IMG/VR virus record: IMGVR_UViG_2703718840_000001
Span: 1 to 10,940 of that record
Reading direction: 5' to 3' (one strand)
Source: a virus
Lineage: Duplodnaviria; Heunggongvirae; Uroviricota; Caudoviricetes
Length of the DNA stretch: 10,940 nt
Shown one piece after another: positions 1 to 10,940 of the stretch. A program made the translations under genes and the position numbers. The first letter of the stretch is position 1, and every line of letters begins with the position of its first letter. Under the pieces are notes generated by a model, which did no database searches, was not told the DNA's origin, and was given only the letters and a program-made list of their open reading frames with translations.

Positions 1-862
1 GGAGCTGGACTTTGAAACCATTCTTGCCGAACGCAAGGCGACACTGATTTCCCTTTACCCGGAAGACCAGCAGGAGGCGGTCGCCCGTACCCTGACGCTG
101 GAATCTGAGCCTCTCGTCAAACTGCTGGAGGAAAATGCTTATCGTGAGCTTATCTGGCGTCAGCGTGTGAATGAGGCCGCACGGGCGGTGATGCTGGCCT
201 GTGCCGCCGGTAATGACCTTGATGTGATTGGTGCCAATTACAACACCACGCGCCTGACTATCACCCCGGCAGATGATTCGACCATCCCGCCGACACCGGT
301 AGTGATGGAGTCTGACACCGATTATCGTCTGCGTATTCAGCAGGCGTTTGAAGGTTTAAGCGTCGCCGGGTCGGTGGGGGCCTATCAGTATCATGGTCGC
401 AGTGCTGACGGGCGTGTCGCGGATATCTCTGTCACCAGTCCGTCTCCTGCCTGCGTCACCATCTCCGTGCTGTCACGTGAAAATAACGGTGTCGCATCCG
501 AAGACCTGCTGGCTGTGGTGCGTAACGCCCTTAATGGTGAGGACGTCAGGCCGGTGGCTGACCGTGTGACCGTGCAGTCTGCCGCCATTGTTGAATACCA
601 GATAAACGCCACGCTTTACCTTTACCCTGGCCCCGAAAGCGAACCCATTCGCGCTGCCGCCGTGAAAAAACTGGAAGCGTACATCACAGCACAGCACCGG
701 CTGGGGCGTGACATCCGTCTGTCTGCCATTTATGCCGCTTTGCATGTGGAAGGTGTGCAGCGTGTCGAACTGGCTGCACCACTGGCCGACATCGTGCTCA
801 ACAGTACGCAGGCGTCTTTCTGTACCGAATACCGCGTCGTGACCGGAGGCTCGGATGAGTGA
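1..862 (+). CDS. J: Baseplate assembly protein J (P2 gpJ-like), 5' end lies upstream of the window
   Basis: Frame beginning at nt 2 is open from the window edge (ELDFETILAERKATLISLYPEDQQEAVARTL...) and runs into the listed ORF 167-862. The protein is recognised as near-identical to phage P2 gpJ, which is about 300 aa, so roughly 15 N-terminal residues are missing. The stop overlaps the start of the next gene (ATGAGTGA at 855-862). Confidence 0.92.
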   Translation, partial: ELDFETILAERKATLISLYPEDQQEAVARTLTLESEPLVKLLEENAYRELIWRQRVNEAARAVMLACAAGNDLDVIGANYNTTRLTITPADDSTIPPTPVVMESDTDYRLRIQQAFEGLSVAGSVGAYQYHGRSADGRVADISVTSPSPACVTISVLSRENNGVASEDLLAVVRNALNGEDVRPVADRVTVQSAAIVEYQINATLYLYPGPESEPIRAAAVKKLEAYITAQHRLGRDIRLSAIYAALHVEGVQRVELAAPLADIVLNSTQASFCTEYRVVTGGSDE

Positions 863-1385
863 TTCGCGACTGCTGCCGACCGGCTCATCACCGCTTGAGG
901 TCGCCGCCGCAAAAGCCTGTGCGGAAATTGAAAAAACGCCGGTCAGGATTCGTGAGCTGTGGAACCCGGACACCTGCCCGGCAAATCTGCTGCCGTGGCT
1001 GGCGTGGGCGTTTTCGGTCGACAGGTGGGATGAAAAGTGGCCGGAAGCGACAAAACGCGCCGTTATCCGCGATGCCTATTTCATCCACTGTCATAAGGGC
1101 ACGATAGGTGCAATCCGGCGTGTGGTGGAGCCGCTCGGCTATCTCATCAACGTGACGGAGTGGTGGGAAAACAGTGACCCGCCCGGCACCTTCCGGCTTG
1201 ATATTGGTGTACTGGAAAGTGGCATCACAGAGGCAATGTATCAGGAAATGGAACGGCTGATTGCTGATGCCAAACCTGCAAGCCGTCACCTTATTGGCCT
1301 GAACATTACCCGGGACATTCCCGGCTACCTGTTCGCCGGTGGTGTGGCTTACGACGGCGATGTAATTACGGTTTACCCCGGATAA
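855..1385 (+). CDS. I: Baseplate assembly protein I (P2 gpI-like)
   Basis: 176-aa ORF (MSDSRLLPTGSSPLEVAAAKACAEIEK...) recognised as P2 gpI. Its ATG overlaps the J stop codon, indicating translational coupling, and it keeps the P2 order J-I-H. Confidence 0.92.
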   Translation: MSDSRLLPTGSSPLEVAAAKACAEIEKTPVRIRELWNPDTCPANLLPWLAWAFSVDRWDEKWPEATKRAVIRDAYFIHCHKGTIGAIRRVVEPLGYLINVTEWWENSDPPGTFRLDIGVLESGITEAMYQEMERLIADAKPASRHLIGLNITRDIPGYLFAGGVAYDGDVITVYPG

Positions 1386-1395
1386 GTGAGGAATA

Positions 1396-3618
1396 ATGAG
1401 CACAAAATTCAGAACCGTTATCACCACTGCCGGTGCAGCAAAGCTGGCAGCGGCAACCGCACCGGGAGGGCGGAAGGTCAACATTACCACGATGGCCGTC
1501 GGGGATGGCGGTGGTAAATTACCTGTCCCGGATGCCGGACAGACCGGGCTTATCCACGAAGTCTGGCGACATGCGCTGAACAAAATCAGTCAGGACAAAC
1601 GAAACAGTAATTATATTATCGCAGAGCTGGTTATTCCGCCGGAGGTGGGCGGTTTCTGGATGCGAGAGCTTGGCCTGTACGATGATGCGGGAACGTTAAT
1701 TGCCGTGGCGAACATGGCCGAAAGTTATAAGCCAGCCCTTGCCGAAGGCTCAGGGCGTTCGCAGACCTGCCGCATGGTCATCATCGTCAGCAGTGTGGCC
1801 TCAGTGGAGCTGACCATTGACACCACAACGGTGATGGCAACGCAGGATTACGTTGATGACAAAATTGCAGAACATGAACAGTCACGACGTCACCCTGACG
1901 CCTCGCTGACCGCAAAAGGTTTTACTCAGTTAAGCAGTGCGACCAACAGCACGTCTGAAACACTGGCCGCAACGCCGAAAGCGGTAAAGGCCGCGTATGA
2001 CCTTGCTAACGGGAAATATACCGCACAGGACGCCACCATAGCGCGAAAAGGCCTTGTCCAGCTCAGTAGTGCCACCAACAGCACGTCTGAAACACTGGCC
2101 GCAACGCCGAAAGCGGTAAAGGCAGCATATGACCTTGCTAACGGGAAATACACTGCACAGGACGCCACCACAACGCGAAAAGGCCTTGTCCAGCTCAGTA
2201 GCGCCACCAACAGCGATTCTGAAACGCTGGCCGCAACGCCAAAGGCGGTAAAAGCAGCATATGACCTTGCTAACGGGAAATATACCGCACAGGACGCCAC
2301 CACAGCGCGGAAAGGCCTTGTCCAGCTCAATAGTGCCATCAACAGCGATTCTGAAACGCTGGCCGCAACACCAAAAGCAGTGAAGTCTGCCTATGACAAT
2401 GCTGAAAAACGTCTTCAGAAAGATCAGAACGGTGCGGATATTCCTGATAAAGGACGTTTTCTGAGTAACATTAATGTTTACAGCAAAGGTGAAGTGGATA
2501 AGAAAAAGGGAATGCGAAAGTATTCGTTTGCAGCCCCTGCAAATGTCGTTGCCGGGAAGTGGTATCCCGTTATCTTTCGCCGTGCTGCCAGCCTTTCAGG
2601 AGAAATGGCATCCCGCGTCGTTATTTCCACTGGTTGTTATAACGGCGATTATGTAATGAATAACTGCGAGTTTAATGGCATGGTTATGCCCGGAGGATGG
2701 ACTGATCGTGGTTCATATGCGGCAGGTTATTTCTGGACGTATCAGACCAATGAGCGTTCAATCCATTCCATTGTTACAAGCCTGAAAGATGATGATGTAT
2801 GTAGTGTTTTTTATGTTGAAGCCAGAGCTTTCCCTGTGCAAATTCTTGCAGAGGAAGGGCTAACGGTTATTGTTCCGACAGAGGATTATGTCGTCGGTCA
2901 AACGACATATAAGTGGGGGGCAACTAATCCCGCTACAGAAAGCACGAACGCACAGGCTATTCTGGATTTTAAAAATGGGCGCGGTTATTACTGCTCACAT
3001 CCATTTATTTCCAACCTTTCAGGAAATGCTGCAACAGCCTCAAAACTCGAAACACCGAGGAAAATAGCAGGTGTTGCCTTTGATGGTTCTGGAGATATTA
3101 CCCTTAATGCCAGAAATGTCGGTGCATTTGCACTTCGGCAGACAGGTAATACGGTTAATGGTGATACAGCCGTGGGATGGAATTGGGACAGTGGCGCATA
3201 CAACGCTCTGATTGGGGGAGCATCTGCATTAATTCTTCACTTTAATATAAATGCTGGTAGCTGCCCGGCTGTACAGTTTCGTGTGAATTATAAAAATGGC
3301 GGTATATCTTACAGGTCAGCCCGTGATGGTTATGGTTTTGAATCTGGCTGGTCTGATTTCTATACCACAACACGAAAACCATCAGCGGGAGATGTTGGTG
3401 CATACACCAAAGCTGAATCAGATTCTCGCTATGTCCGGGATATTCGCCTGGGCACTCGTGTTGTTCAGACCATGCAGAAAGGAGTGATGTATGAGAAAGC
3501 AGGGCACGTAATTACAGGGCTTGGTATTGTCGGTGAAGTCGATGGTGATGACCCCGCAGTATTCAGACCAATACAAAAATACATCAATGGCACATGGTAT
3601 AACGTCGCACAGGTGTAA
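1396..3618 (+). CDS. H: Tail fibre protein H (P2 gpH-like), with internal 44-aa tandem repeats and a divergent distal (receptor-binding) part
   Basis: 740-aa ORF preceded by GAGG (1388-1391). The N-terminal ~170 aa (MSTKFRTVITTAGAAKLAAATAPGGRKV...) and the extreme C-terminus (...YEKAGHVITGLGIVGEVDGDDPAVFRPIQKYINGTWYNVAQV) match P2 gpH as I recall it. The middle and distal part is AT-rich and contains a motif (NAATASKLETPRKIAGVAFDGSGDITLNA) that I recall as typical of side-tail-fibre proteins. Confidence 0.92.
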   Translation: MSTKFRTVITTAGAAKLAAATAPGGRKVNITTMAVGDGGGKLPVPDAGQTGLIHEVWRHALNKISQDKRNSNYIIAELVIPPEVGGFWMRELGLYDDAGTLIAVANMAESYKPALAEGSGRSQTCRMVIIVSSVASVELTIDTTTVMATQDYVDDKIAEHEQSRRHPDASLTAKGFTQLSSATNSTSETLAATPKAVKAAYDLANGKYTAQDATIARKGLVQLSSATNSTSETLAATPKAVKAAYDLANGKYTAQDATTTRKGLVQLSSATNSDSETLAATPKAVKAAYDLANGKYTAQDATTARKGLVQLNSAINSDSETLAATPKAVKSAYDNAEKRLQKDQNGADIPDKGRFLSNINVYSKGEVDKKKGMRKYSFAAPANVVAGKWYPVIFRRAASLSGEMASRVVISTGCYNGDYVMNNCEFNGMVMPGGWTDRGSYAAGYFWTYQTNERSIHSIVTSLKDDDVCSVFYVEARAFPVQILAEEGLTVIVPTEDYVVGQTTYKWGATNPATESTNAQAILDFKNGRGYYCSHPFISNLSGNAATASKLETPRKIAGVAFDGSGDITLNARNVGAFALRQTGNTVNGDTAVGWNWDSGAYNALIGGASALILHFNINAGSCPAVQFRVNYKNGGISYRSARDGYGFESGWSDFYTTTRKPSAGDVGAYTKAESDSRYVRDIRLGTRVVQTMQKGVMYEKAGHVITGLGIVGEVDGDDPAVFRPIQKYINGTWYNVAQV
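1918..2400 (+). repeat. In-frame tandem repeat array, 132-bp unit (44 aa), about 3.6 copies, inside tail-fibre gene H
   Basis: Direct reading: units start at about 1918, 2050, 2182 and 2314 (for example ACGTCTGAAACACTGGCC at 1951 and again at 2083). The peptide GLVQLSSATNS(T/D)SETLAATPKAVKAAYDLANGKYTAQDATTARK recurs. Copies 1-2 share the NSTSETL variant and copies 3-4 the NSDSETL variant. Confidence 0.93.
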
Positions 3619-3621
3619 TTT

Positions 3622-4149
3622 ATGCAGCATTTAAAAAATATTACTGCGGGTAATCCAAAAACTGTTGCCCAATATCAACTGACAAAAAATTTTGATGTTA
3701 TCTGGTTATGGTCCGAAGAGGGAAAAAACTGGTATGAGGAAGTAAGTAATTTTCAGGAAGAGACGATAAAGATTGTTTACGACGAGAATAATATAATTGT
3801 CGGCATCACCCGAGATGCTTCAACGCTTAACCCTGAAGGTTTTAGCGTTGTCGAGGTTCCTGATATTACTGCCAACCGACGTGCTGATGACTCAGGTAAA
3901 TGGATGTTTAAGGATGGTGCCGTGATTAAGCGGATTTATACGGCAGACGAACAGCAGCAACTGGCAGAATCACAAAAGGCAACTTTGCTTTCCGAAGCAG
4001 AATCCGTGATTTTGCCGCTGGAGCGCGCTGTCAGGCTGAATATGGCAACAGATGAGGAACGCAGCCGACTGGAAGCATGGGAACGCTACAGCGTTCTGGT
4101 CAGCCGTGTGGATCCTGCAAATCCTGAATGGCCGGAAATGCCGCAATAA
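3622..4149 (+). CDS. G: Tail fibre assembly protein/chaperone (P2 gpG-like, Tfa family)
   Basis: 175-aa ORF immediately downstream of H with AGGTG at 3611-3615. The C-terminal half (...[38 protein letters not shown]) resembles the conserved end of tail-fibre assembly proteins. Length and position match P2 gene G. Confidence 0.88.
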
Positions 4150-4185
4150 GTTGTATAAGCTCTGGTGTGAGATTACATATCTATG

Positions 4186-4224
4186 GCACAGAGTAAAGCC
4201 TAATCTGACAGGCCGCTCTGTGTC
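4186..4224 (+). other. Imperfect inverted repeat / possible stem-loop downstream of G
   Basis: CACAGAG (4187-4193) pairs with CTCTGTG (4216-4222), with a ~22-nt loop. No T-tract follows, so it is not a classical intrinsic terminator. Confidence 0.2.
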
Positions 4225-4370
4225 TGGAGTAGATTTTAGTAAAGCATTATTTTATTAGTGCAAATTCTAAACAATACATTTTATGTATATGATATCCTGC
4301 GGACTTTAATGACTTGGTTTAGGCTAACCAGATAACACTGAAGGAATATTTTTGATAATTAAGGTGCGGT

Positions 4371-4964
4371 ATGTTTACTAAGCGACGATTAAAAAATATT
4401 AACTGGGAGGCAAGTTCAGTGATTCTTGCTATGGTTCTCTTTGTTGGAAATATATTTTATACAAATCATCGTGATGATATAAGCATGGAGGCTGAGAGAG
4501 ACAGTATCAGAACAATGTTTGCATATGAAATCGCTAATAACCATCGCGCTCTCACTTTTCTTGATAAAACGAGAAATATTGGCTTTGACGAAAATTCGGA
4601 GCATTTTGTTGGCGAGCCTTTTGCCATTAATGTCGAATCATTAGGAGGGCCTCGCTTACAGATTGCATTAAACCAGACTGATAAAGTTTTTAAAGCCTAC
4701 TTCAGTGAATTAAGTAAACTTGATAAAGAGGATGTTACTCTTCTTATGGACTATTACCATGAGCAAAGCATCCTGCTGGAGTGTGTAAAATCTACGTTAC
4801 AGAAGATGAAAGGTAATAATGATATTAAAGTTGATATTGATGGTTACTTATTAGAAGAACACTTCATGAATGAGTTTAATCTTTCTAATATTTTGCTTAA
4901 ACGCTATAGCCATTTGTTGTCACAACACCTCAAAAAACCCGAAACAAAGGATTTACATAATTGA
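4371..4964 (+). CDS. Hypothetical protein of the accessory insert between G and FI: predicted single-pass membrane-anchored protein, function unknown
   Basis: 197-aa ORF with AAGGTG (4361-4366) 4 nt upstream of the ATG. It is markedly AT-rich compared with the flanking tail genes. The N-terminus has a basic stretch (KRRLK) followed by a ~17-residue hydrophobic segment (SSVILAMVLFVGNIFY), suggesting an N-in signal anchor. The rest is charged and likely helical, with no catalytic motif I recognise. Only one long ORF lies in this ~1.1 kb inter-module region. Confidence 0.7.
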   Translation: MFTKRRLKNINWEASSVILAMVLFVGNIFYTNHRDDISMEAERDSIRTMFAYEIANNHRALTFLDKTRNIGFDENSEHFVGEPFAINVESLGGPRLQIALNQTDKVFKAYFSELSKLDKEDVTLLMDYYHEQSILLECVKSTLQKMKGNNDIKVDIDGYLLEEHFMNEFNLSNILLKRYSHLLSQHLKKPETKDLHN

Positions 4965-5152
4965 TAATCTGCTAATGGTTATTCATGGGATAACTATGTT
5001 TTATATGTAATCCAACTCAGATGAATTACTGATTCTGGATAATAACCGCAGAGCGGCATATACCCTGACAGGCAAATGTCCGCTTCTTGCTCAAAGCAGA
5101 CTGTCAGATTTGATAACTTTTGGGTTATGTAAATTGTCAGTCGGAAAATGAG

Positions 5153-5170
5153 TGTGTACAAATCAGGACA
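5153..5170 (+). promoter_or_regulatory. Candidate activator-type dyad (TGT-N12-ACA) upstream of FI, possible P2-style late promoter element
   Basis: TGT (5153-5155) - 12 nt - ACA (5168-5170). P2-family late promoters are known to carry a TGT-N12-ACA dyad centred near -55 for Ogr/Delta-type activators, and the FI-operon late promoter is expected in this spacer. The match is short, and the hairpin at 5172-5188 sits where the core promoter would be, so this is tentative. Confidence 0.2.
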
Positions 5171-5171
5171 G

Positions 5172-5199
5172 GCGGGCGAATTGCCCGCATTTTCTTTAT
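5172..5199 (+). terminator. Candidate Rho-independent terminator downstream of the accessory ORF
   Basis: GC-rich 6-bp stem GCGGGC (5172-5177) / GCCCGC (5183-5188) with a 5-nt loop (GAATT), followed by the T-rich run ATTTTCTTTATC (5189-5200). It lies about 200 bp after the 4964 stop and about 100 bp before FI. Confidence 0.4.
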
Positions 5200-5293
5200 C
5201 TGTTGTTTCATCCCCTGACCAGCCAGGTCAAATAGCGTCTCATGCTCTGCACAACAGAAAATAGTTGCACCCATTAACCACGGAGTTAAACGG

Positions 5294-6484
5294 ATGAGTG
5301 ACTATCATCACGGCGTGCAGGTGCTGGAGATTAACGACGGCACCCGCGTCATTTCCACCGTATCCACGGCCATTGTCGGCATGGTCTGCACGGCCAGCGA
5401 TGCAGATGCGGAAACCTTCCCCCTCAATAAACCGGTGCTGATTACCAATGTGCAGAGCGCAATTGCAAAGGCCGGTAAAAAAGGCACGCTGGCGGCATCG
5501 TTGCAGGCCATCGCCGACCAGTCAAAACCGGTCACCGTTGTCGTGCGTGTGGAAGACGGCACCGGCGACGACGAAGAAACGAAACTCGCGCAGACCGTTT
5601 CCAATATCATCGGCACCACCGACGAAAACGGCCAGTACACCGGACTGAAAGCCCTGCTGGCGGCGGAGTCGGTAACCGGTGTTAAACCGCGTATTCTCGG
5701 TGTGCCGGGGCTGGATACCAAAGAGGTGGCTGTTGCACTGGCATCAGTCTGTCAGAAGTTGCGCGCTTTCGGGTATATCAGCGCATGGGGCTGTAAGACC
5801 ATTTCCGAGGTGAAAGCCTACCGCCAGAATTTCAGCCAGCGTGAGCTGATGGTCATCTGGCCGGATTTCCTCGCATGGGATACGGTCACCAGTACCACCG
5901 CCACCGCGTATGCCACCGCCCGTGCGCTGGGTCTGCGTGCCAAAATCGACCAGGAGCAGGGCTGGCATAAAACGCTGTCCAACGTCGGGGTAAACGGTGT
6001 TACCGGCATCAGTGCCTCTGTATTCTGGGATTTGCAGGAGTCCGGCACCGATGCTGACCTGCTTAACGAGTCAGGCGTCACTACGCTGATTCGCCGCGAC
6101 GGTTTCCGATTCTGGGGTAACCGTACCTGCTCTGATGACTCGCTGTTCCTCTTTGAAAACTACACCCGCACCGCGCAGGTGCTGGCCGACACGATGGCTG
6201 AGGCGCACATGTGGGCGGTGGACAAGCCCATCACCGCAACGCTGATTCGCGACATCGTTGACGGCATCAATGCCAAATTCCGTGAGCTGAAAACAAACGG
6301 CTATATCGTGGATGCGACCTGCTGGTTCAGCGAAGAATCCAACGATGCGGAAACCCTCAAGGCCGGAAAACTGTATATCGACTACGACTATACACCGGTG
6401 CCTCCTCTTGAAAATCTGACCCTGCGCCAGCGTATTACCGATAAATACCTGGCAAATCTGGTCACCTCGGTTAACAGCAATTAA
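5294..6484 (+). CDS. FI: Contractile tail sheath protein (P2 gpFI-like)
   Basis: 396-aa ORF (MSDYHHGVQVLEINDGTRVISTVSTAIVGMV...) recognised as P2 FI. GGAG at 5282-5285. It is the first gene after the accessory insert, as in the P2 FETUD operon. Confidence 0.94.
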   Translation: MSDYHHGVQVLEINDGTRVISTVSTAIVGMVCTASDADAETFPLNKPVLITNVQSAIAKAGKKGTLAASLQAIADQSKPVTVVVRVEDGTGDDEETKLAQTVSNIIGTTDENGQYTGLKALLAAESVTGVKPRILGVPGLDTKEVAVALASVCQKLRAFGYISAWGCKTISEVKAYRQNFSQRELMVIWPDFLAWDTVTSTTATAYATARALGLRAKIDQEQGWHKTLSNVGVNGVTGISASVFWDLQESGTDADLLNESGVTTLIRRDGFRFWGNRTCSDDSLFLFENYTRTAQVLADTMAEAHMWAVDKPITATLIRDIVDGINAKFRELKTNGYIVDATCWFSEESNDAETLKAGKLYIDYDYTPVPPLENLTLRQRITDKYLANLVTSVNSN

Positions 6485-6496
6485 GGAGCCTGACCG

Positions 6497-7015
6497 ATGG
6501 CAATGCCGCGCAAACTCAAGTTAATGAACGTCTTTCTGAACGGCTACAGCTATCAGGGCGTCGCGAAGTCCGTCACGCTACCAAAACTGACCCGTAAGCT
6601 CGAAAACTATCGCGGTGCGGGGATGAACGGCAGCGCACCGGTAGACCTCGGCCTTGATGACGATGCGCTGTCAATGGAGTGGTCGCTCGGTGGCTTCCCG
6701 GATTCGGTTATCTGGGAGCTTTACGCCGCAACCGGTGTGGATGCCGTACCGATTCGTTTTGCAGGCTCTTACCAGCGCGACGATACCGGCGAAACGGTGG
6801 CCGTCGAGGTGGTCATGCGTGGACGTCAGAAAGAAATCGACACCGGCGAGGGCAAACAGGGAGAAGACACCGAGTCGAAAATCTCCGTGGTCTGCACCTA
6901 TTTCCGGCTGACGATGGACGGTAAGGAGCTGGTCGAAATCGACACCATCAACATGATTGAGAAGGTGAACGGCGTCGACCGGCTGGAGCAACACCGTCGC
7001 AATATCGGCCTGTGA
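6497..7015 (+). CDS. FII: Tail tube protein (P2 gpFII-like)
   Basis: 172-aa ORF (MAMPRKLKLMNVFLNGYSYQGVAKSVTLPKLTRKLENYRGAG...) recognised as P2 FII. AAGGAG at 6482-6487 overlaps the FI stop codon. Confidence 0.94.
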   Translation: MAMPRKLKLMNVFLNGYSYQGVAKSVTLPKLTRKLENYRGAGMNGSAPVDLGLDDDALSMEWSLGGFPDSVIWELYAATGVDAVPIRFAGSYQRDDTGETVAVEVVMRGRQKEIDTGEGKQGEDTESKISVVCTYFRLTMDGKELVEIDTINMIEKVNGVDRLEQHRRNIGL

Positions 7016-7071
7016 TTTTCATCCGGTCAGCCTGGCTGACCGGTTAACCCCGATTCAGAAGTGAGAAAACC

Positions 7072-7347
7072 ATGAACAAAGAAAACGTCATTACCCTGGA
7101 CAAGCCGGTCAAACGTGGTGAGCAGGTTATCGAACAGGTCACGCTGATGAAACCTAATGCCGGGACGCTGCGCGGTGTCAGTCTGGCTGCGGTCGCAAAC
7201 TCCGAAGTCGATGCACTGATTAAAGTGCTGCCGCGCATGACCGCACCGATGCTGACCGAGCAGGAAGTCGCCGCGCTGGAACTGCCTGACCTTGTGGCGC
7301 TGGCCGGTAAGGTGGTCGGTTTTTTGTCGCCGAACTCGGTGCAGTGA
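7072..7347 (+). CDS. E: Tail assembly chaperone E (P2 gpE-like), zero-frame product
   Basis: 91-aa ORF (MNKENVITLDKPVKRGEQVIEQVTLMKPNAGTLRGVSLAAV...) at the expected position between FII and T. It ends at TGA 7345-7347, just after the slippery site. Confidence 0.9.
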   Translation: MNKENVITLDKPVKRGEQVIEQVTLMKPNAGTLRGVSLAAVANSEVDALIKVLPRMTAPMLTEQEVAALELPDLVALAGKVVGFLSPNSVQ

Positions 7348-7499
7348 CGTTTCCGAAAAATCTCTCGGTCGATGATCTGATGGCGGATGTGGCAGTGATA
7401 TTTCACTGGCCGCCATCAGAACTGTATCCCATGAGCCTGACCGAACTCATCACATGGCGCGAAAAGGCGCTCCGGCGAAGCGGAAACACGAATGAGTAA
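7072..7499 (+). CDS. E+E': Tail assembly chaperone E+E' produced by programmed -1 ribosomal frameshift (joined 7072-7325 / 7326-7499)
   Basis: After a -1 slip on T-TTT-TTG (7320-7326) the new frame reads VAELGAVTFPKNLSVDDLMADVAVIFHWPPSELYPMSLTELITWREKALRRSGNTNE and stops at TAA 7497-7499, overlapping the ATG of T (7492). This matches the known P2 E/E' arrangement. Confidence 0.8.
7320..7326 (+). other. Slippery heptamer T-TTT-TTG, -1 programmed frameshift site for E+E'
   Basis: The heptamer is in the zero frame of E (codons GGT-TTT-TTG), 7 codons before the E stop. The -1 frame is open for 58 further codons to the start of T. Confidence 0.8.
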
Positions 7500-9939
7500 C
7501 AATGTAAAATTACAGGTATTGCTCAGGGCTGTTGACCAGGCATCCCGCCCGTTTAAATCCATCCGCACAGCGAGCAAGTCGCTGTCGGGGGATATCCGGG
7601 AAACACAAAAATCACTGCGCGAGCTGAACGGTCAGGCATCCCGTATTGAGGGGTTCCGCAAGACCAGTGCACAGCTCGCCGTGACTGGTCAGGAACTGAA
7701 AAAAGCCAGACAGGAAGCCGCAGCACTGGCTGTCCAGTTTAAAAATACTGAACGACCAACAAATGCACAGGCAAAGGCAATGGAAGCCGCGCGTAAAAAT
7801 GTGTCGGAGTTACAGGCGAAATATAACAGCCTGAGATTGTCGGTACAGCGCCAGCGTCAGGAACTGAGTCAGGCGGGTATTAATACCCGTAATCTGGCGC
7901 ATGATGAACGAGGGCTGAAAAACCGTATCAGTGAAACCACCGTACAGCTTAACCGGCAGCGTGACGCGCTGGCGCGTGTCAGTGCGCAACAGGCAAAACT
8001 TAACGCAGTAAAACAGCGTTATCAGGCCGGAAAGGAACTGGCCGGTAATATGGCCTCAGTGGGCGCTGCCGGTGTGGGGATTGCTGCTGCGGGAACGATG
8101 GTCGGAGTTAAGCTGCTGATGCCCGGTTATGAGTTTGCGCAGAAAAACTCAGAATTGCAGGCCGTGCTAGGAGTGGCAAAAGACTCCGCCGAAATGACCG
8201 CACTCCGCAAGCAGGCGCGCCAGCTCGGCGACAATACCGCAGCCTCGGCAGATGATGCAGCCGGTGCACAGATTATCATTGCGAAAGCGGGTGGAGATGC
8301 TGCGGCTATTCAGGCGACAACGCCGGTCACGCTGAATATGGCACTGGCGAATCAGCGGTCGATGGAAGAAAACGCGCAACTGTTGCTGGGGACTAAGGCA
8401 TCCTTTCAACTGTCAAATGATGATGTCAGCCATGTGGGCGACGTGTTGTCGGCAACGATGAATAAGTCGGCGGCTGATTTTCAGGGACTCAGTGATGCAC
8501 TGACTTACCTCGGGCCGGTTGCGAGGACTGCAGGTGTAAGTCTTGAGCAGGCAGCAGCCATGACAGGTGTGCTGCATGACAATAACATCAGGGGGTCAAT
8601 GGCGGGGACGGGTAGCAGTGCCGTTGTCACCCGATTACAGGCACCGACTGGAAAAGCATGGGATGCACTCAAAGAGCTTGGCGTTAAAACCTCGGACAAA
8701 AAGGGAAATATGCGTCCGTTGTTCACCATTCTGAAAGAGATTCAGGCCAGCTTTGATAAACACAAGCTGGGAACGTCTCAGAAGGGGGAATACCTTAAAA
8801 CCATTTTTGGTGAGGAAGCCCTGAAATCAGCGAACGTTTTACTGGCAGCGGCAGCAAGCGGAAAACTGGATAAGCTGACCGCCACGCTGAAAGCCTCGGA
8901 CGGTAAAACGGAAGAGCTGGTTAAAATCATGCAGGATAACCTCGGCGGTGACTTTAAGGCGTTTCAGTCCGCTTATGAGGCGGTGGGGACAGACCTGTTT
9001 GACCAGCAGGAAGGCACACTGCGTAAGCTCACGCAGACGGCCACAAAGTATGTGTTAAAACTCGACGGCTGGATCCAGAAAAACAAATCACTGGCGTCAA
9101 CCATCGGCCTCATTGCCGGTGGCGCGCTGGCGCTGACTGGCATCATCGGTGCCATTGGTCTTGTAGCCTGGCCGGTTATCACCGGCATCAATGCCATTAT
9201 CGCGGCAGCAGGCGCAATGGGAGCAATCTTCACGACGGTTGGCAGTGCTGTTATGACGGCCATCGGGGCGATTAGCTGGCCGGTTGTGGCCGTGGTGGCC
9301 GCCATTGTCGCCGGGGCGTTGCTTATCCGTAAATACTGGGAGCCTGTCAGCGCATTCTTTGGCGGTGTGGTTGAAGGGCTGAAAGCGGCATTTGCGCCGG
9401 TGGGGGAACTGTTCACGCCACTTAAGCCGGTGTTTGACTGGCTGGGCGAAAAGTTACAGGCCGCGTGGCAGTGGTTTAAAAACCTGATTGCCCCGGTTAA
9501 AGCCACCCAGGACACCCTGAACCGTTGCCGTGACACGGGCGTCATGTTCGGGCAGGCACTGGCTGACGCGCTGATGCTGCCGCTTAATGCGTTCAACAAA
9601 CTGCGCAGCGGTATTGACTGGGTACTGGAAAAACTCGGCGTCATCAACAAAGAGTCTGACGCACTTGACCAGACCGCCGCCAGAACTCAAGCCGCCACGT
9701 ATGGCAGCGGTGGTTATATTCCGGCGACCAGCTCTTATGCAGGTTATCAGGCTTATCAGCCGGTCACGGCACCGGCTGGCCGCTCTTATGTGGACCAGAG
9801 TAAAAACGAATATCACATCAGCCTGACGGGTGGTACTGCGCCGGGGACACAGCTCGACCGCCAGTTACAGGATGCGCTCGAAAAATACGAGCGGGATAAA
9901 CGTGCGCGCGCCCGTGCCAGCATGATGCATGACGGTTAA
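7492..9939 (+). CDS. T: Tail tape measure protein (P2 gpT-like)
   Basis: 815-aa ORF with a coiled-coil-like, Q/R/A-rich N-terminal part and a Gly/Ala-rich hydrophobic segment (LIAGGALALTGIIGAIGLVAWPVITGINAIIAAAGAMGAI...) typical of tape measure proteins. The start overlaps the E' stop. The sequence is recognised as P2 gpT. Confidence 0.93.
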   Translation: MSNNVKLQVLLRAVDQASRPFKSIRTASKSLSGDIRETQKSLRELNGQASRIEGFRKTSAQLAVTGQELKKARQEAAALAVQFKNTERPTNAQAKAMEAARKNVSELQAKYNSLRLSVQRQRQELSQAGINTRNLAHDERGLKNRISETTVQLNRQRDALARVSAQQAKLNAVKQRYQAGKELAGNMASVGAAGVGIAAAGTMVGVKLLMPGYEFAQKNSELQAVLGVAKDSAEMTALRKQARQLGDNTAASADDAAGAQIIIAKAGGDAAAIQATTPVTLNMALANQRSMEENAQLLLGTKASFQLSNDDVSHVGDVLSATMNKSAADFQGLSDALTYLGPVARTAGVSLEQAAAMTGVLHDNNIRGSMAGTGSSAVVTRLQAPTGKAWDALKELGVKTSDKKGNMRPLFTILKEIQASFDKHKLGTSQKGEYLKTIFGEEALKSANVLLAAAASGKLDKLTATLKASDGKTEELVKIMQDNLGGDFKAFQSAYEAVGTDLFDQQEGTLRKLTQTATKYVLKLDGWIQKNKSLASTIGLIAGGALALTGIIGAIGLVAWPVITGINAIIAAAGAMGAIFTTVGSAVMTAIGAISWPVVAVVAAIVAGALLIRKYWEPVSAFFGGVVEGLKAAFAPVGELFTPLKPVFDWLGEKLQAAWQWFKNLIAPVKATQDTLNRCRDTGVMFGQALADALMLPLNAFNKLRSGIDWVLEKLGVINKESDALDQTAARTQAATYGSGGYIPATSSYAGYQAYQPVTAPAGRSYVDQSKNEYHISLTGGTAPGTQLDRQLQDALEKYERDKRARARASMMHDG

Positions 9940-9953
9940 GGAGGTGACGAAAA

Positions 9954-10433
9954 ATGATGCTCGCGTTAGGTATGTTTGTTTTTATGCGCCAGACGCTGCC
10001 ACACCAGACCATGCAGCGTGAATCAGATTATCGCTGGCCGTCAAATTCCCGTATCGGTAAACGGGATGCCTACCAGTTTCTCGGCGTTGGCGAGGAAAAC
10101 ATGACGCTGGCCGGTGTGCTTTATCCCGAACTGACCGGCGGCAAGCTGACGATGACCACGCTCAGGCTGATGGCAGAGGAAGGTCGGGCGTGGCCGTTGC
10201 TGGATGGCACCGGCATGATTTACGGCATGTATGTCATCAGCAGGGTGAGTGAAACAGGGAGTATTTTCTTTGCAGACGGCACACCCCGAAAAATTGATTT
10301 TACGCTGTCGCTCACCCGCGTTGACGAATCACTGGCCGCGCTTTATGGCGATATCGGTAAACAGGCGGAATCGCTCATCGGTAAGGCCGGCAGTCTGGCG
10401 ACCAGATTCACAGGTATGACGGGGGCGGGATAA
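9954..10433 (+). CDS. U: Tail protein U (P2 gpU-like)
   Basis: 159-aa ORF (MMLALGMFVFMRQTLPHQTMQRESDYRWPSNSRIGKRDAYQF...) with AAGGAGG at 9938-9944. It follows T as in P2, and its TAA stop overlaps the next ATG (TAATG at 10431-10435). Confidence 0.92.
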   Translation: MMLALGMFVFMRQTLPHQTMQRESDYRWPSNSRIGKRDAYQFLGVGEENMTLAGVLYPELTGGKLTMTTLRLMAEEGRAWPLLDGTGMIYGMYVISRVSETGSIFFADGTPRKIDFTLSLTRVDESLAALYGDIGKQAESLIGKAGSLATRFTGMTGAG

Positions 10434-10940
10434 TGCTGGATGCGCTGACATTTGATGCAGGCAGTACGCTGACGCCGGATTACATGCTGATGCTCGACAG
10501 CAGGGATATTACCGGCAATATCAGCGACCGTCTGATGAGCATGACTCTGACGGATAACCGGGGCTTTGAAGCTGACCAGCTTGATATTGAACTGAACGAT
10601 GCCGACGGGCAGGTCGGGCTGCCGGTTCGTGGCGCTGTCCTGACGGTGTATATCGGCTGGAAAGGTTTTGCCCTGGTATGCAAAGGGAAATTTACCGTTG
10701 ATGAGGTTGAACACCGGGGCGCGCCGGATGTGGTCACCATCCGCGCCCGGAGTGCAGATTTTCGCGGGACGCTCAATTCCCGCCGTGAAGGCTCCTGGCA
10801 TGACACCACGCTCGGTGCGATTGTTGAGGCGATAGCCTCCCGTAACAGGCTGGAAGCCAGTGTCGCTCCGTCACTGGCCGGAATTAAAATCCCGCACATC
10901 GACCAGTCGCAGGAGTCTGATGCGAAATTCCTGACCCGTC
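10433..10940 (+). CDS. D: Tail protein D (P2 gpD-like, late control / tail completion), 3' end lies beyond the window
   Basis: Not in the supplied ORF track because it has no stop in the window. The frame from ATG 10433 is open to the window end and translates to MLDALTFDAGSTLTPDYMLMLDSRDITGNISDRLMSMTLTDNRGFEADQLDIELNDADGQVGLPVRGAVLTVYIGWKG..., recognised as the N-terminus of P2 gpD. Confidence 0.88.
   Translation, partial: MLDALTFDAGSTLTPDYMLMLDSRDITGNISDRLMSMTLTDNRGFEADQLDIELNDADGQVGLPVRGAVLTVYIGWKGFALVCKGKFTVDEVEHRGAPDVVTIRARSADFRGTLNSRREGSWHDTTLGAIVEAIASRNRLEASVAPSLAGIKIPHIDQSQESDAKFLTR

Follow-up and report, generated by a model that had tools for sequence, protein, structure and literature searches.

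What does a lone AT-rich gene do when it stands between two conserved tail genes of a P2-like prophage? The window analysed here is the whole stretch of 10,940 nucleotides (nt) that makes up positions 1 to 10,940 of the IMG/VR virus record IMGVR_UViG_2703718840_000001, and it is the tail region of a P2-like (Peduovirus) prophage. Between its tail fibre assembly gene G and its tail sheath gene FI lies a horizontally acquired, AT-rich, single-gene cassette, and this interval is the P2 fun(Z) hotspot, also named 'moron position 2'. The gene in the cassette, open reading frame (ORF) 197, encodes an orphan protein of 197 amino acids (aa) under purifying selection, in which one N-terminal transmembrane (TM) helix is predicted to run into a helical bundle. 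ORF197 is a reasonable candidate for blocking infection by other phages. The borders and parts of the slot are as follows.

3622-4149, plus strand: G, for a tail fibre assembly protein, which closes the V late operon and borders the slot on the left (Pfam Caudo_TAP, E 1.2e-34; same annotation in near-identical prophages)
4202-4234, no strand: left junction element of the P2 Z-slot (AATCTGACAG GCCGCTCTGTG TCTGGAGTAGAT), conservation with P2, P2-EC58 and 8 other loci extends to 4222
about 4235-5077, plus strand: swapped AT-rich cargo cassette, one gene with 5' and 3' untranslated flanks (P2 and other cargo variants are dissimilar between these points; GC 0.34)
5078-5110, no strand: right junction element (GTCCGCTTCTTGCTCAAAGCAGACTGTCAGATT), an inverted weaker copy of the left element, with which the right backbone starts (conserved in all variants)
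5294-6484, plus strand: FI, tail sheath, right border of the slot (Pfam Phage_sheath_1, sheath_1C and Gp18_domIII_N; tail sheath domains at E 1e-34)

Genes in the window were called from a six-frame ORF list and Pfam, and their order (J-I-H-G-x-FI-FII-E/E'-T-U-D, x being the insert) is that of the P2 Z/fun location. In the annotation of the P2 record (NC_001895) the G-FI interval contains the V-operon terminator, fun(Z) and the pF activator site. A sequence-only reading of this DNA had taken the G/FI junction for the variable Z/fun slot of P2, and the P2 annotation, the Pfam matches of both flanks, synteny and the junction elements all agree with this assignment. The same reading had placed an AT-rich insert between the end of G at 4149 and the start of FI at 5294. 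Base composition bears this out: in 300-nt windows GC is 0.33-0.38 over 4201-5100 and 0.55-0.59 in FI and downstream, and the cargo (4223-5074) has a GC of 0.342 against 0.538 for the remaining window. GC of this 852-nt cargo is about 11 binomial standard deviations under the window mean, and GC at third codon positions (GC3) is 0.32 in ORF197 and 0.69 in FI. GC is below that of the window in G (0.45) and in the 3' half of H as well, and hence the break on the left side is a step down from an already lower level.

The insert had been put at about 1.1 kb, and here the earlier reading needs narrowing. The G-FI interval was compared by alignment to P2, to the P2-EC58 Z-region record of Nilsson and to 8 E. 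coli prophages that carry other cargo. Backbone is conserved up to 4222, fades through 4234 and returns from 5078, and the 1144-nt interval is only partly insert. Positions 4150-4234 are conserved P2-type backbone common to P2, P2-EC58 and other prophages with different cargo, and 5078-5293 are backbone too, including a terminator hairpin and the pF late-promoter region. The AT-rich stretch thus stands, but its foreign part is confined to about 4235-5077, and its one long ORF, at 4371-4964, is the single 197-aa gene that had been noted.

Copies of the whole interval, 96-99% identical, occur in 201 E. coli genomes and in 13 phage records. Among the 5426 complete E. coli genomes searched, 1037 match the backbone and 201 of these have the cassette, as have 13 of the 67 matching phage records, isolated viable phages among them. 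The cassette is therefore a common occupant of a variable slot and not a ubiquitous, invariant insert. As an extra gene amid essential genes, with deviant base composition and absent from relatives, it agrees in these features with a moron in the sense of Hendrix and Juhala.

The junctions themselves are shared across cargo variants. The left backbone end reads AATCTGACAG(T/G)CCGCTCTGTG, and most of the other variants have a strong hairpin here (GTCCGCTC-N6-8-GAGCGGAC; dG -10 to -17.6 kcal/mol), whereas in the ORF197 variant this hairpin is weak (-7.6 kcal/mol) and its 3' arm is GAGTAGAT in place of GAGCGGAC. Positions 4202-4220 and 5092-5110 are an inverted repeat pair, and the right element matches the left at 20-25 of 33 positions across loci. 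Both elements align with P2, P2-EC58 and the 8 other loci, and the 'left' and 'right inverted repeat' of the AJ512683 annotation include them. The slot is bracketed by an inverted repeat of about 33 bp, each copy hairpin-forming, and the junction arms yield short direct repeats, G(T/G)CCGCT, on either side of the cargo. Cargo might be exchanged by recombination at these repeats, or the repeats might insulate the V late operon from the F late operon. An exact complement to the left 5' arm, CAGAGCGGC, is unique in the window at 5049-5057, and the joined arms have a dG of -21.8 kcal/mol. A location of the cassette inside the loop of the left hairpin was nevertheless dropped, because the Pantoea locus described below has an intact left hairpin together with the same downstream block; decay of the 3' arm by three transitions appears to be the simpler reading. 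No empty (excised) site was present in the 5426 E. coli genomes.

The slot has a history in the literature. Wiles et al. (2013, PMC3573123) named it 'moron position 2' and found in it the fitness gene neaT of strain CFT073. Vassallo et al. (2022, PMC9519451) counted it as a second P2 locus enriched for defence, in which three of their systems occur in addition to fun, and Egorov et al. (2024, bioRxiv 10.1101/2024.10.15.618418) recovered the Z/fun hotspot with mixed cargo, including tail-fibre swaps; the analysis of Rousset et al. (2022) was confined to the other (old/tin) P2 hotspot. In the E. coli prophages that we sampled, the slot carries DarT/macro-domain genes (DarTG), SMEK-domain, DUF4435 and DUF5677 proteins, an HNH endonuclease and two hypothetical proteins. 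Together with the reports of 2022 and 2024, these cargoes uphold the suggestion that the slot is an anti-phage hotspot. The slot and its hotspot nature were already known, and a defence role for ORF197 is guilt by location. Location alone is weak evidence for defence, because the same slot also holds neaT and tail-fibre swaps.

The neaT case leads to a different explanation, in which ORF197 acts on the host and not on phages. Such lysogenic conversion would alter the cell surface, stress tolerance, colonisation or resistance to colicins, tailocins, type VI secretion systems or host factors, and would benefit the lysogen in certain niches. NeaT, from the CFT073 prophage phi-b0847, is like ORF197 an AT-rich, phyletically rare single-gene cargo in exactly the same slot, and it contributes to fitness in bacteraemia (PMC3573123). 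E. coli carriers of the ORF197 cassette also come from varied human and animal sources. NeaT is an acyltransferase (PF01757) encoded on the opposite strand with a virulence/fitness phenotype, and ORF197 has no enzymatic signature. Further evidence on this explanation comes from the protein family and from its genomic contexts.

The gene and its two most conserved parts are the following.

4371-4964, plus strand: ORF197, predicted bitopic inner-membrane protein of 197 aa, member of the orphan family PHROG 3829 (full-length match, E 1e-132)
4404-4466, plus strand: predicted single TM helix (signal anchor), codons 12-32, after the basic tail MFTKRRLKN (sole hydrophobic segment in all 26 family members)
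4509-4541, plus strand: motif R47-x3-A51-x-E53-I54-x2-N57 of the juxtamembrane helix, codons 47-57 (invariant or near-invariant columns in 26 sequences)

The cargo had been called a family not recognised, and the searches agree: neither Pfam nor NCBIfam matches ORF197, PADLOC-DB 2.0 gives 0 families at E<=10 for ORF197, Pfam and PADLOC searches with the 26 family members yield nothing consistent, and the PHROG search with all 26 members returns PHROG 3829 (unknown function) and no annotated PHROG. The sole Pfam match, NCH2, is below threshold (E 0.06), one Rfam match (snoR43, E 0.43) is at chance level, and the PDB sequence profile search with ORF197 gives noise only (E >= 0.24). ORF197 is not a form of a well-characterised slot protein such as Fun(Z) (hhalign probability 0.1%, E 0.68), nor of ORF1 of the P2-EC58 Z-region, a 'putative lysogenic protein' (hhalign probability 0.5%). 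Judged by their described domains, the validated P4/P2 systems of NAR 2026 (Bandua, Aernus, Toga, Reve, Crouga and Hailong) are unlike ORF197 as well. By tblastn, Z-region (AJ...) records are absent among the 13 phage records. A description of the family as entirely new needs a caveat, since it is already catalogued, though uncharacterised, as PHROG 3829 and under the NCBI name 'lysogenic conversion protein'. This name would favour host-directed conversion, but no evidence behind it could be traced.

The family is rare: an exhaustive profile search among 1.84 billion representatives yielded 29 proteins at E <= 1e-3. All members with a source name or species title belong to Enterobacterales, the majority of members are unnamed metagenome sequences, and a scan of genome contigs with the narrow alignment gave only 2 species-level loci. 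The ratio of nonsynonymous to synonymous substitution rates (dN/dS) is 0.10-0.15 between genera, and hence ORF197 is a real, constrained protein; dS against the Pantoea homologue is 1.3, with synonymous sites saturated. In the 26-member alignment (19-98% identity) only R47, N57 and L117 are invariant, and A51, E53, I54 and Y129 are nearly so. Truncated versions of 99 aa (P0041, P0043; about 40 contigs) exist in several complete E. coli genomes, and thus the gene is occasionally inactivated.

A first AlphaFold2 (AF2) model with 21 close homologues had a mean predicted local distance difference test score (pLDDT) of 58 and was unusable. Addition of 12 distant members raised pLDDT to 83, with a predicted template modelling score (pTM) of 0.72. 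In this wide-alignment model, residues 12-66 are predicted as one continuous helix that contains the TM segment and the invariant motif, followed by a loop (67-91) and four more helices. The TM helix and residues 44-66 (the juxtamembrane motif helix) are the most conserved segments. Net charge summed over the 26 sequences is +44 in the N-terminal flank and -2 in the C-terminal flank of the TM helix, distant members have long, very basic N-tails, and a C-terminal CX4C pair in three distant members is compatible with periplasmic disulfides. An N-in/C-out topology with a periplasmic helical bundle is favoured with moderate confidence, the call being only moderate because counts of lysine plus arginine (K+R) alone are balanced. 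One TM helix, the N-in charge bias and the AF2 model together predict the membrane or periplasmic location that is typical of superinfection exclusion (Sie) proteins.

Fold searches returned generic bundles only (best Foldseek E = 0.12). The matches include periplasmic ligand-binding domains of chemoreceptors and sensor kinases, which likewise follow a TM helix. With the four-helix-bundle (4HB) ligand-binding domains of Tar/Tsr, PcaY and Adeh_2942 the resemblance is one of fold class only, and designed bundles, talin and OspC match at least as well. Unlike sensors of the 4HB_MCP type, ORF197 has no Pfam 4HB_MCP match, no second TM helix and no cytoplasmic output domain, and the protein ends after the bundle. 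In every library searched, no catalytic or nucleotide-binding signature was detected, which fits action by binding and not by enzymatic activity.

ORF197 could also be a membrane effector of abortive infection (Abi). In that case infection would be sensed, the protein would oligomerise or its bundle would open and insert, and the cell would be depolarised and die before progeny release. Small TM proteins are frequent among single-gene Abi and defence effectors, the conserved TM helix of ORF197 has polar residues (S16 and N27) that could mediate oligomerisation, putAbiC and AbiJ-domain genes are among the neighbours of homologues, and the bundle matches, generic as they are, include designed membrane-lytic bundles and apolipoprotein-like folds. 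However, ORF197 has one TM helix only, with no amphipathic or pore-forming signature, and no sensor or enzymatic domain was recognised. A periplasmic domain, as predicted, would be badly placed for cytoplasmic infection cues, and the fold matches are non-specific. We consider an Abi effector a rather poor prospect, somewhat below host-directed conversion.

Signals for expression of ORF197 and of the downstream operon are listed here.

4265-4293, plus strand: candidate sigma-70 promoter for ORF197, TTCTAA-N17-TATGAT (block about 81% conserved upstream of the Pantoea homologue)
4361-4366, plus strand: Shine-Dalgarno AAGGTG, 4 nt before the ATG (direct reading; TTTTTGATAATTAAGGnGCGG conserved in Pantoea)
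5172-5197, plus strand: intrinsic-terminator-like hairpin GCGGGCGAATTGCCCGC with T-tract, conserved backbone (terminator scan; present in all cargo variants)
5198-5293, plus strand: pF late-promoter region and FI ribosome-binding site (homology with P2; aligned region conserved)

ORF197 has its own Shine-Dalgarno, as had been noted, and the 20 nt before its start codon are near-identical to those of the Pantoea homologue. The upstream block is kept in Pantoea despite saturated dS, which supports a promoter of its own. The only candidate of the promoter scan, 4332-4359, was rejected because a start site there would remove the Shine-Dalgarno. A palindrome, ATACATTTTATGTAT, lies at 4275-4289 in the spacer of the candidate promoter, with a similar AT-palindrome in the same place in Pantoea, and it is possibly an operator site. 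At the other end, the GC-rich hairpin at 5172-5188 is followed by TTTTCTTT and has an RNA minimum free energy of -14.7 kcal/mol (z = -2.5 against shuffles). It probably ends transcripts from G and from the cargo before pF. The hairpin and T-tract downstream of the ORF are thus present as described earlier, but they belong to the backbone and are not the cassette's own. Judged by autonomous expression, which is a mark of morons, ORF197 has a candidate promoter that is conserved in Pantoea but was missed by the consensus scan because its -35 matches at only 3/6 positions, and the terminator at 5172 is that of the backbone.

No terminator was found by scan between G and ORF197, and hence the gene is probably also read through from the V operon. 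Late read-through leads to the possibility of an accessory role in the lytic cycle of the phage itself, in lysis timing or in stopping progeny from re-injecting into the infected cell or debris. ORF197 is co-oriented with G within the late structural operon, the first terminator-like site lies at 5172, the left junction hairpin is degraded in the ORF197 variant, and the viable isolates P24E6b, P24B2, P22H1, D8, 12W, PhiR44_1 and P2_AC1 carry the gene. Most P2-like phages are without it, however, and homologues are found in integrative and conjugative elements (ICEs), on plasmid-like contigs and in a chromosomal islet, and another homologue is on the strand opposite to tail genes. Because it is absent from most P2-like phages and present in non-phage elements, the gene is not tied to P2 morphogenesis or lysis, and we regard a lytic-cycle role as improbable.

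The contexts of homologues outside this slot (L numbers are our locus labels) are as follows.

L005, Pantoea: AlpA island with a 69%-identical homologue
L006-8, Salmonella: moron end of a lambdoid prophage, then a DNA methylase/DUF4928 pair
L009, P. rodasii: plasmid-like contig with an AbiJ-domain gene
L010, Salmonella: conjugative (ICE) transfer region
L011, Dickeya: island by SIR2 and DUF87/HerA, and by ArdC
L012, Pectobacterium cacticida (P0074, 7001-7582): within the tail module of a siphovirus-type prophage, inserted on the opposite strand
L048/L050, Kosakonia, 63% identity: P4-like satellite, directly after the alpha primase
L049, 32% identity (IMG/VR UViG_641736172_000003, 6172-8585): past the portal gene of another P2-like phage, by a KAP NTPase
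L051, Proteus: islet in the chromosome, alongside putAbiC and HD-domain proteins

The homologue is a stand-alone insert on a mobile element in all contexts inspected, often with defence genes as neighbours, and the family is shuttled among hotspots of P2-like phages, P4-like satellites, other prophages and ICEs. The position of L049 appears to be the old/tin hotspot. These contexts form a consistent pattern of guilt by location and association, which would point to conflict between mobile genetic elements (MGEs); defence neighbours were judged by eye in about 10 contexts.

This pattern bears on host-directed conversion in both directions. In its favour, the Pantoea copy lies near an Rhs/PAAR toxin locus. 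However, P4-like satellites, the second P2 hotspot and neighbours of the restriction-modification, Abi and SIR2-HerA kinds fit inter-MGE conflict better, and Pfam and NCBIfam searches gave no similarity to known virulence or envelope-modifying families. Host-directed conversion is unlikely in our judgement.

Another possibility is that ORF197 acts in entry exclusion or interference against other mobile elements, namely against conjugative transfer or the uptake of satellites or helpers. Homologues in an ICE transfer region, on plasmid-like contigs and, in one case, by ArdC suggest this, and known entry-exclusion proteins are small inner-membrane proteins. However, the ICE copy lies in a variable cargo stretch with an IS110 element and does not adjoin traG, phages and satellites are the commonest hosts of the family, and the mechanism would overlap with that of a block on phage entry. 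We give exclusion of other elements only a very slight chance.

Some of these loci have features of their own. The L012 insert has a pb9-like distal tail protein gene on one side and a 726-aa gene on the other, and it is a second, independent case of the family at a tail-operon moron site. The L049 member is co-oriented with the gene of a KAP-family P-loop NTPase (593 aa) and follows it at a distance of 45 nt, and in that lineage the two may work together as one system. For P4 loci, recent work has validated 'Reve', a KAP P-loop system of a single gene (PMC13586616). In L005 (Pantoea sp. OXWO6B1), a non-P2 AlpA island, Z-slot junction elements are present at about 5790-5830 and 6680-6735. A left-type hairpin lies about 200 nt upstream of the 69%-identical homologue and a right element, AATGTCCGTTCATCGCTCACAGCGG, downstream, with neither the outer AATCTGACAG/CTGTCAGATT parts nor G/FI neighbours. 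The Pantoea cassette seems to have moved along with part of its P2 junctions, and this locus indicates that Z-slot junction elements can go with the cassette outside P2.

Taken together, an anti-phage or anti-MGE role of any kind has, in our estimate, slightly better than an even chance. Within such a role, action at the envelope by binding and not by catalysis is suggested by the predicted anchor and the lack of catalytic signatures; our confidence in it is lower than in the broad role and higher than in any particular step that would be blocked. A block on entry of phage genomes at the envelope, of the type of SieA or HK97 gp15, is the form that we would put forward, though at somewhat less than even chances. 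According to this model, ORF197 would be expressed in the lysogen from its own candidate promoter (about 4265-4293), probably with late read-through from the V operon too, and transcripts would stop at the backbone terminator at 5172. The protein would insert in the inner membrane with its N-terminus in the cytoplasm and its bundle in the periplasm, and would act alone as a defence of the superinfection-exclusion type. Its TM helix and the juxtamembrane face of R47, E53 and N57 would bind a component of the genome-delivery conduit of the incoming phage or, alternatively, a host inner-membrane protein that this phage needs. Binding would block DNA entry, and the cell would not be killed.

Several points weigh against this proposal. 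Tail-fibre swaps and cargo with a proven role outside defence (neaT, PMC3573123) occupy this slot too. The topology rests on charge bias only, with K+R counts of 74 and 80 on the two sides, and the association with defence neighbours was judged in about 10 contexts without a statistical background. The candidate promoter is a weak match to consensus (-35 only 3/6). In the literature searched, no experimental data on any family member were found, and neither in sequence nor in specific fold does ORF197 resemble a known exclusion or defence protein. ORF197 is also one among several hundred uncharacterised families of P2-hotspot cargo.

Comparison with known systems helps to place the proposal. 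HK97 gp15 reportedly is a tail-operon moron whose product, a small inner-membrane protein, excludes superinfecting phage at DNA entry. It is the closest analogy to ORF197 in genomic placement and predicted protein type, although its phage is of an unrelated type and gp15 is considerably smaller. P22 SieA, encoded by a single prophage gene, is an inner-membrane protein sufficient to block DNA injection (PMC10883804), and it offers a mechanistic model for ORF197. The two differ in genome position and architecture and share no sequence similarity, and the phenotype of SieA is demonstrated whereas that of ORF197 is proposed. PHROG, PDB sequence and fold searches detected no homology to a characterised Sie family. 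P2 Fun(Z) (NP_046777) shares with ORF197 the G/FI slot, its junction elements and the nature of non-essential lysogenic-conversion cargo, and the P2 record states that T5 growth is blocked by the cloned gene. However, Fun(Z) has 528 aa and is encoded on the opposite strand, whereas ORF197 has 197 aa, runs in the orientation of the tail genes and is predicted to be membrane-anchored. Thus, by homology ORF197 falls outside the known defence and Sie families, and it fits the general class of prophage morons.

We also offer a broader and more tentative proposal, to which we give less credence than to the entry block itself. PHROG 3829 may be the founding member of a new family of single-protein envelope defences, each a signal-anchored periplasmic bundle, carried as interchangeable cargo by P2-like phages (in both hotspots), P4-like satellites, other prophages and ICEs, and blocking heterologous genome entry via a target that known Sie proteins do not use. 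If ORF197 excludes phages, it adds a compact (about 600 bp) single-gene defence at the level of the envelope. The cassette is present in about 4% of complete E. coli genomes (201/5426), or about one fifth of backbone carriers, and such a defence would be relevant to predicting host range in phage therapy. It would, besides, open a new way to study how phage genomes are delivered across the inner membrane, a step that is poorly understood. Moreover, the family is a clean example of the same orphan gene moved among hotspots of at least four kinds of mobile elements.

The remaining tail genes of the window are as follows.

167-862: J
855-1385: I
1396-3618: H, tail fibre
6497-7015: FII
7072-7499: E/E'
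7492-9939: T
9954-10433: U
after U: D, of which only the start is in the window

The G-FI interval is present at 99% identity in a complete P2-like prophage by fieF-pfkA in E. coli 2015C-4136CT1. Among complete genomes this strain is the closest relative. Its annotation gives the tape-measure gene, T, as a frameshifted pseudogene (L003, 15343-17789), and the prophage may therefore be defective, with ORF197 intact. Against phage P24E6b, G is only 78% identical while FI is 97% and the cargo 96.5% identical, and therefore the receptor-binding module and the cargo are exchanged independently. Egorov et al. (bioRxiv 10.1101/2024.10.15.618418) likewise remark on independent exchange at the Z/fun hotspot. 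The distal tail-fibre module at 2250-4149 (3' part of H, and G) has a GC of about 0.45, with a GC3 of 0.42 in G, below the remaining tail operon. Within H, at 1936-2397, a unit of 132 nt (44 aa) is repeated 3.5 times in tandem at 90% identity (…LSSATNS.SETLAATPKAVKAAYDLANGKYTAQDAT…).

The control region of the F operon varies as well. In the P2 annotation, the activator binds 69-97 nt before FI and transcription starts 24-26 nt before it. In our window a perfect dyad, TGACC-N5-GGTCA, is found at 5210-5228 upstream of pF, and it is common to most sampled prophages. P2 and one sampled locus (L018) share another version of the activator-site region, and because the dyad version differs from this one, the pF control region exists in two sequence types.

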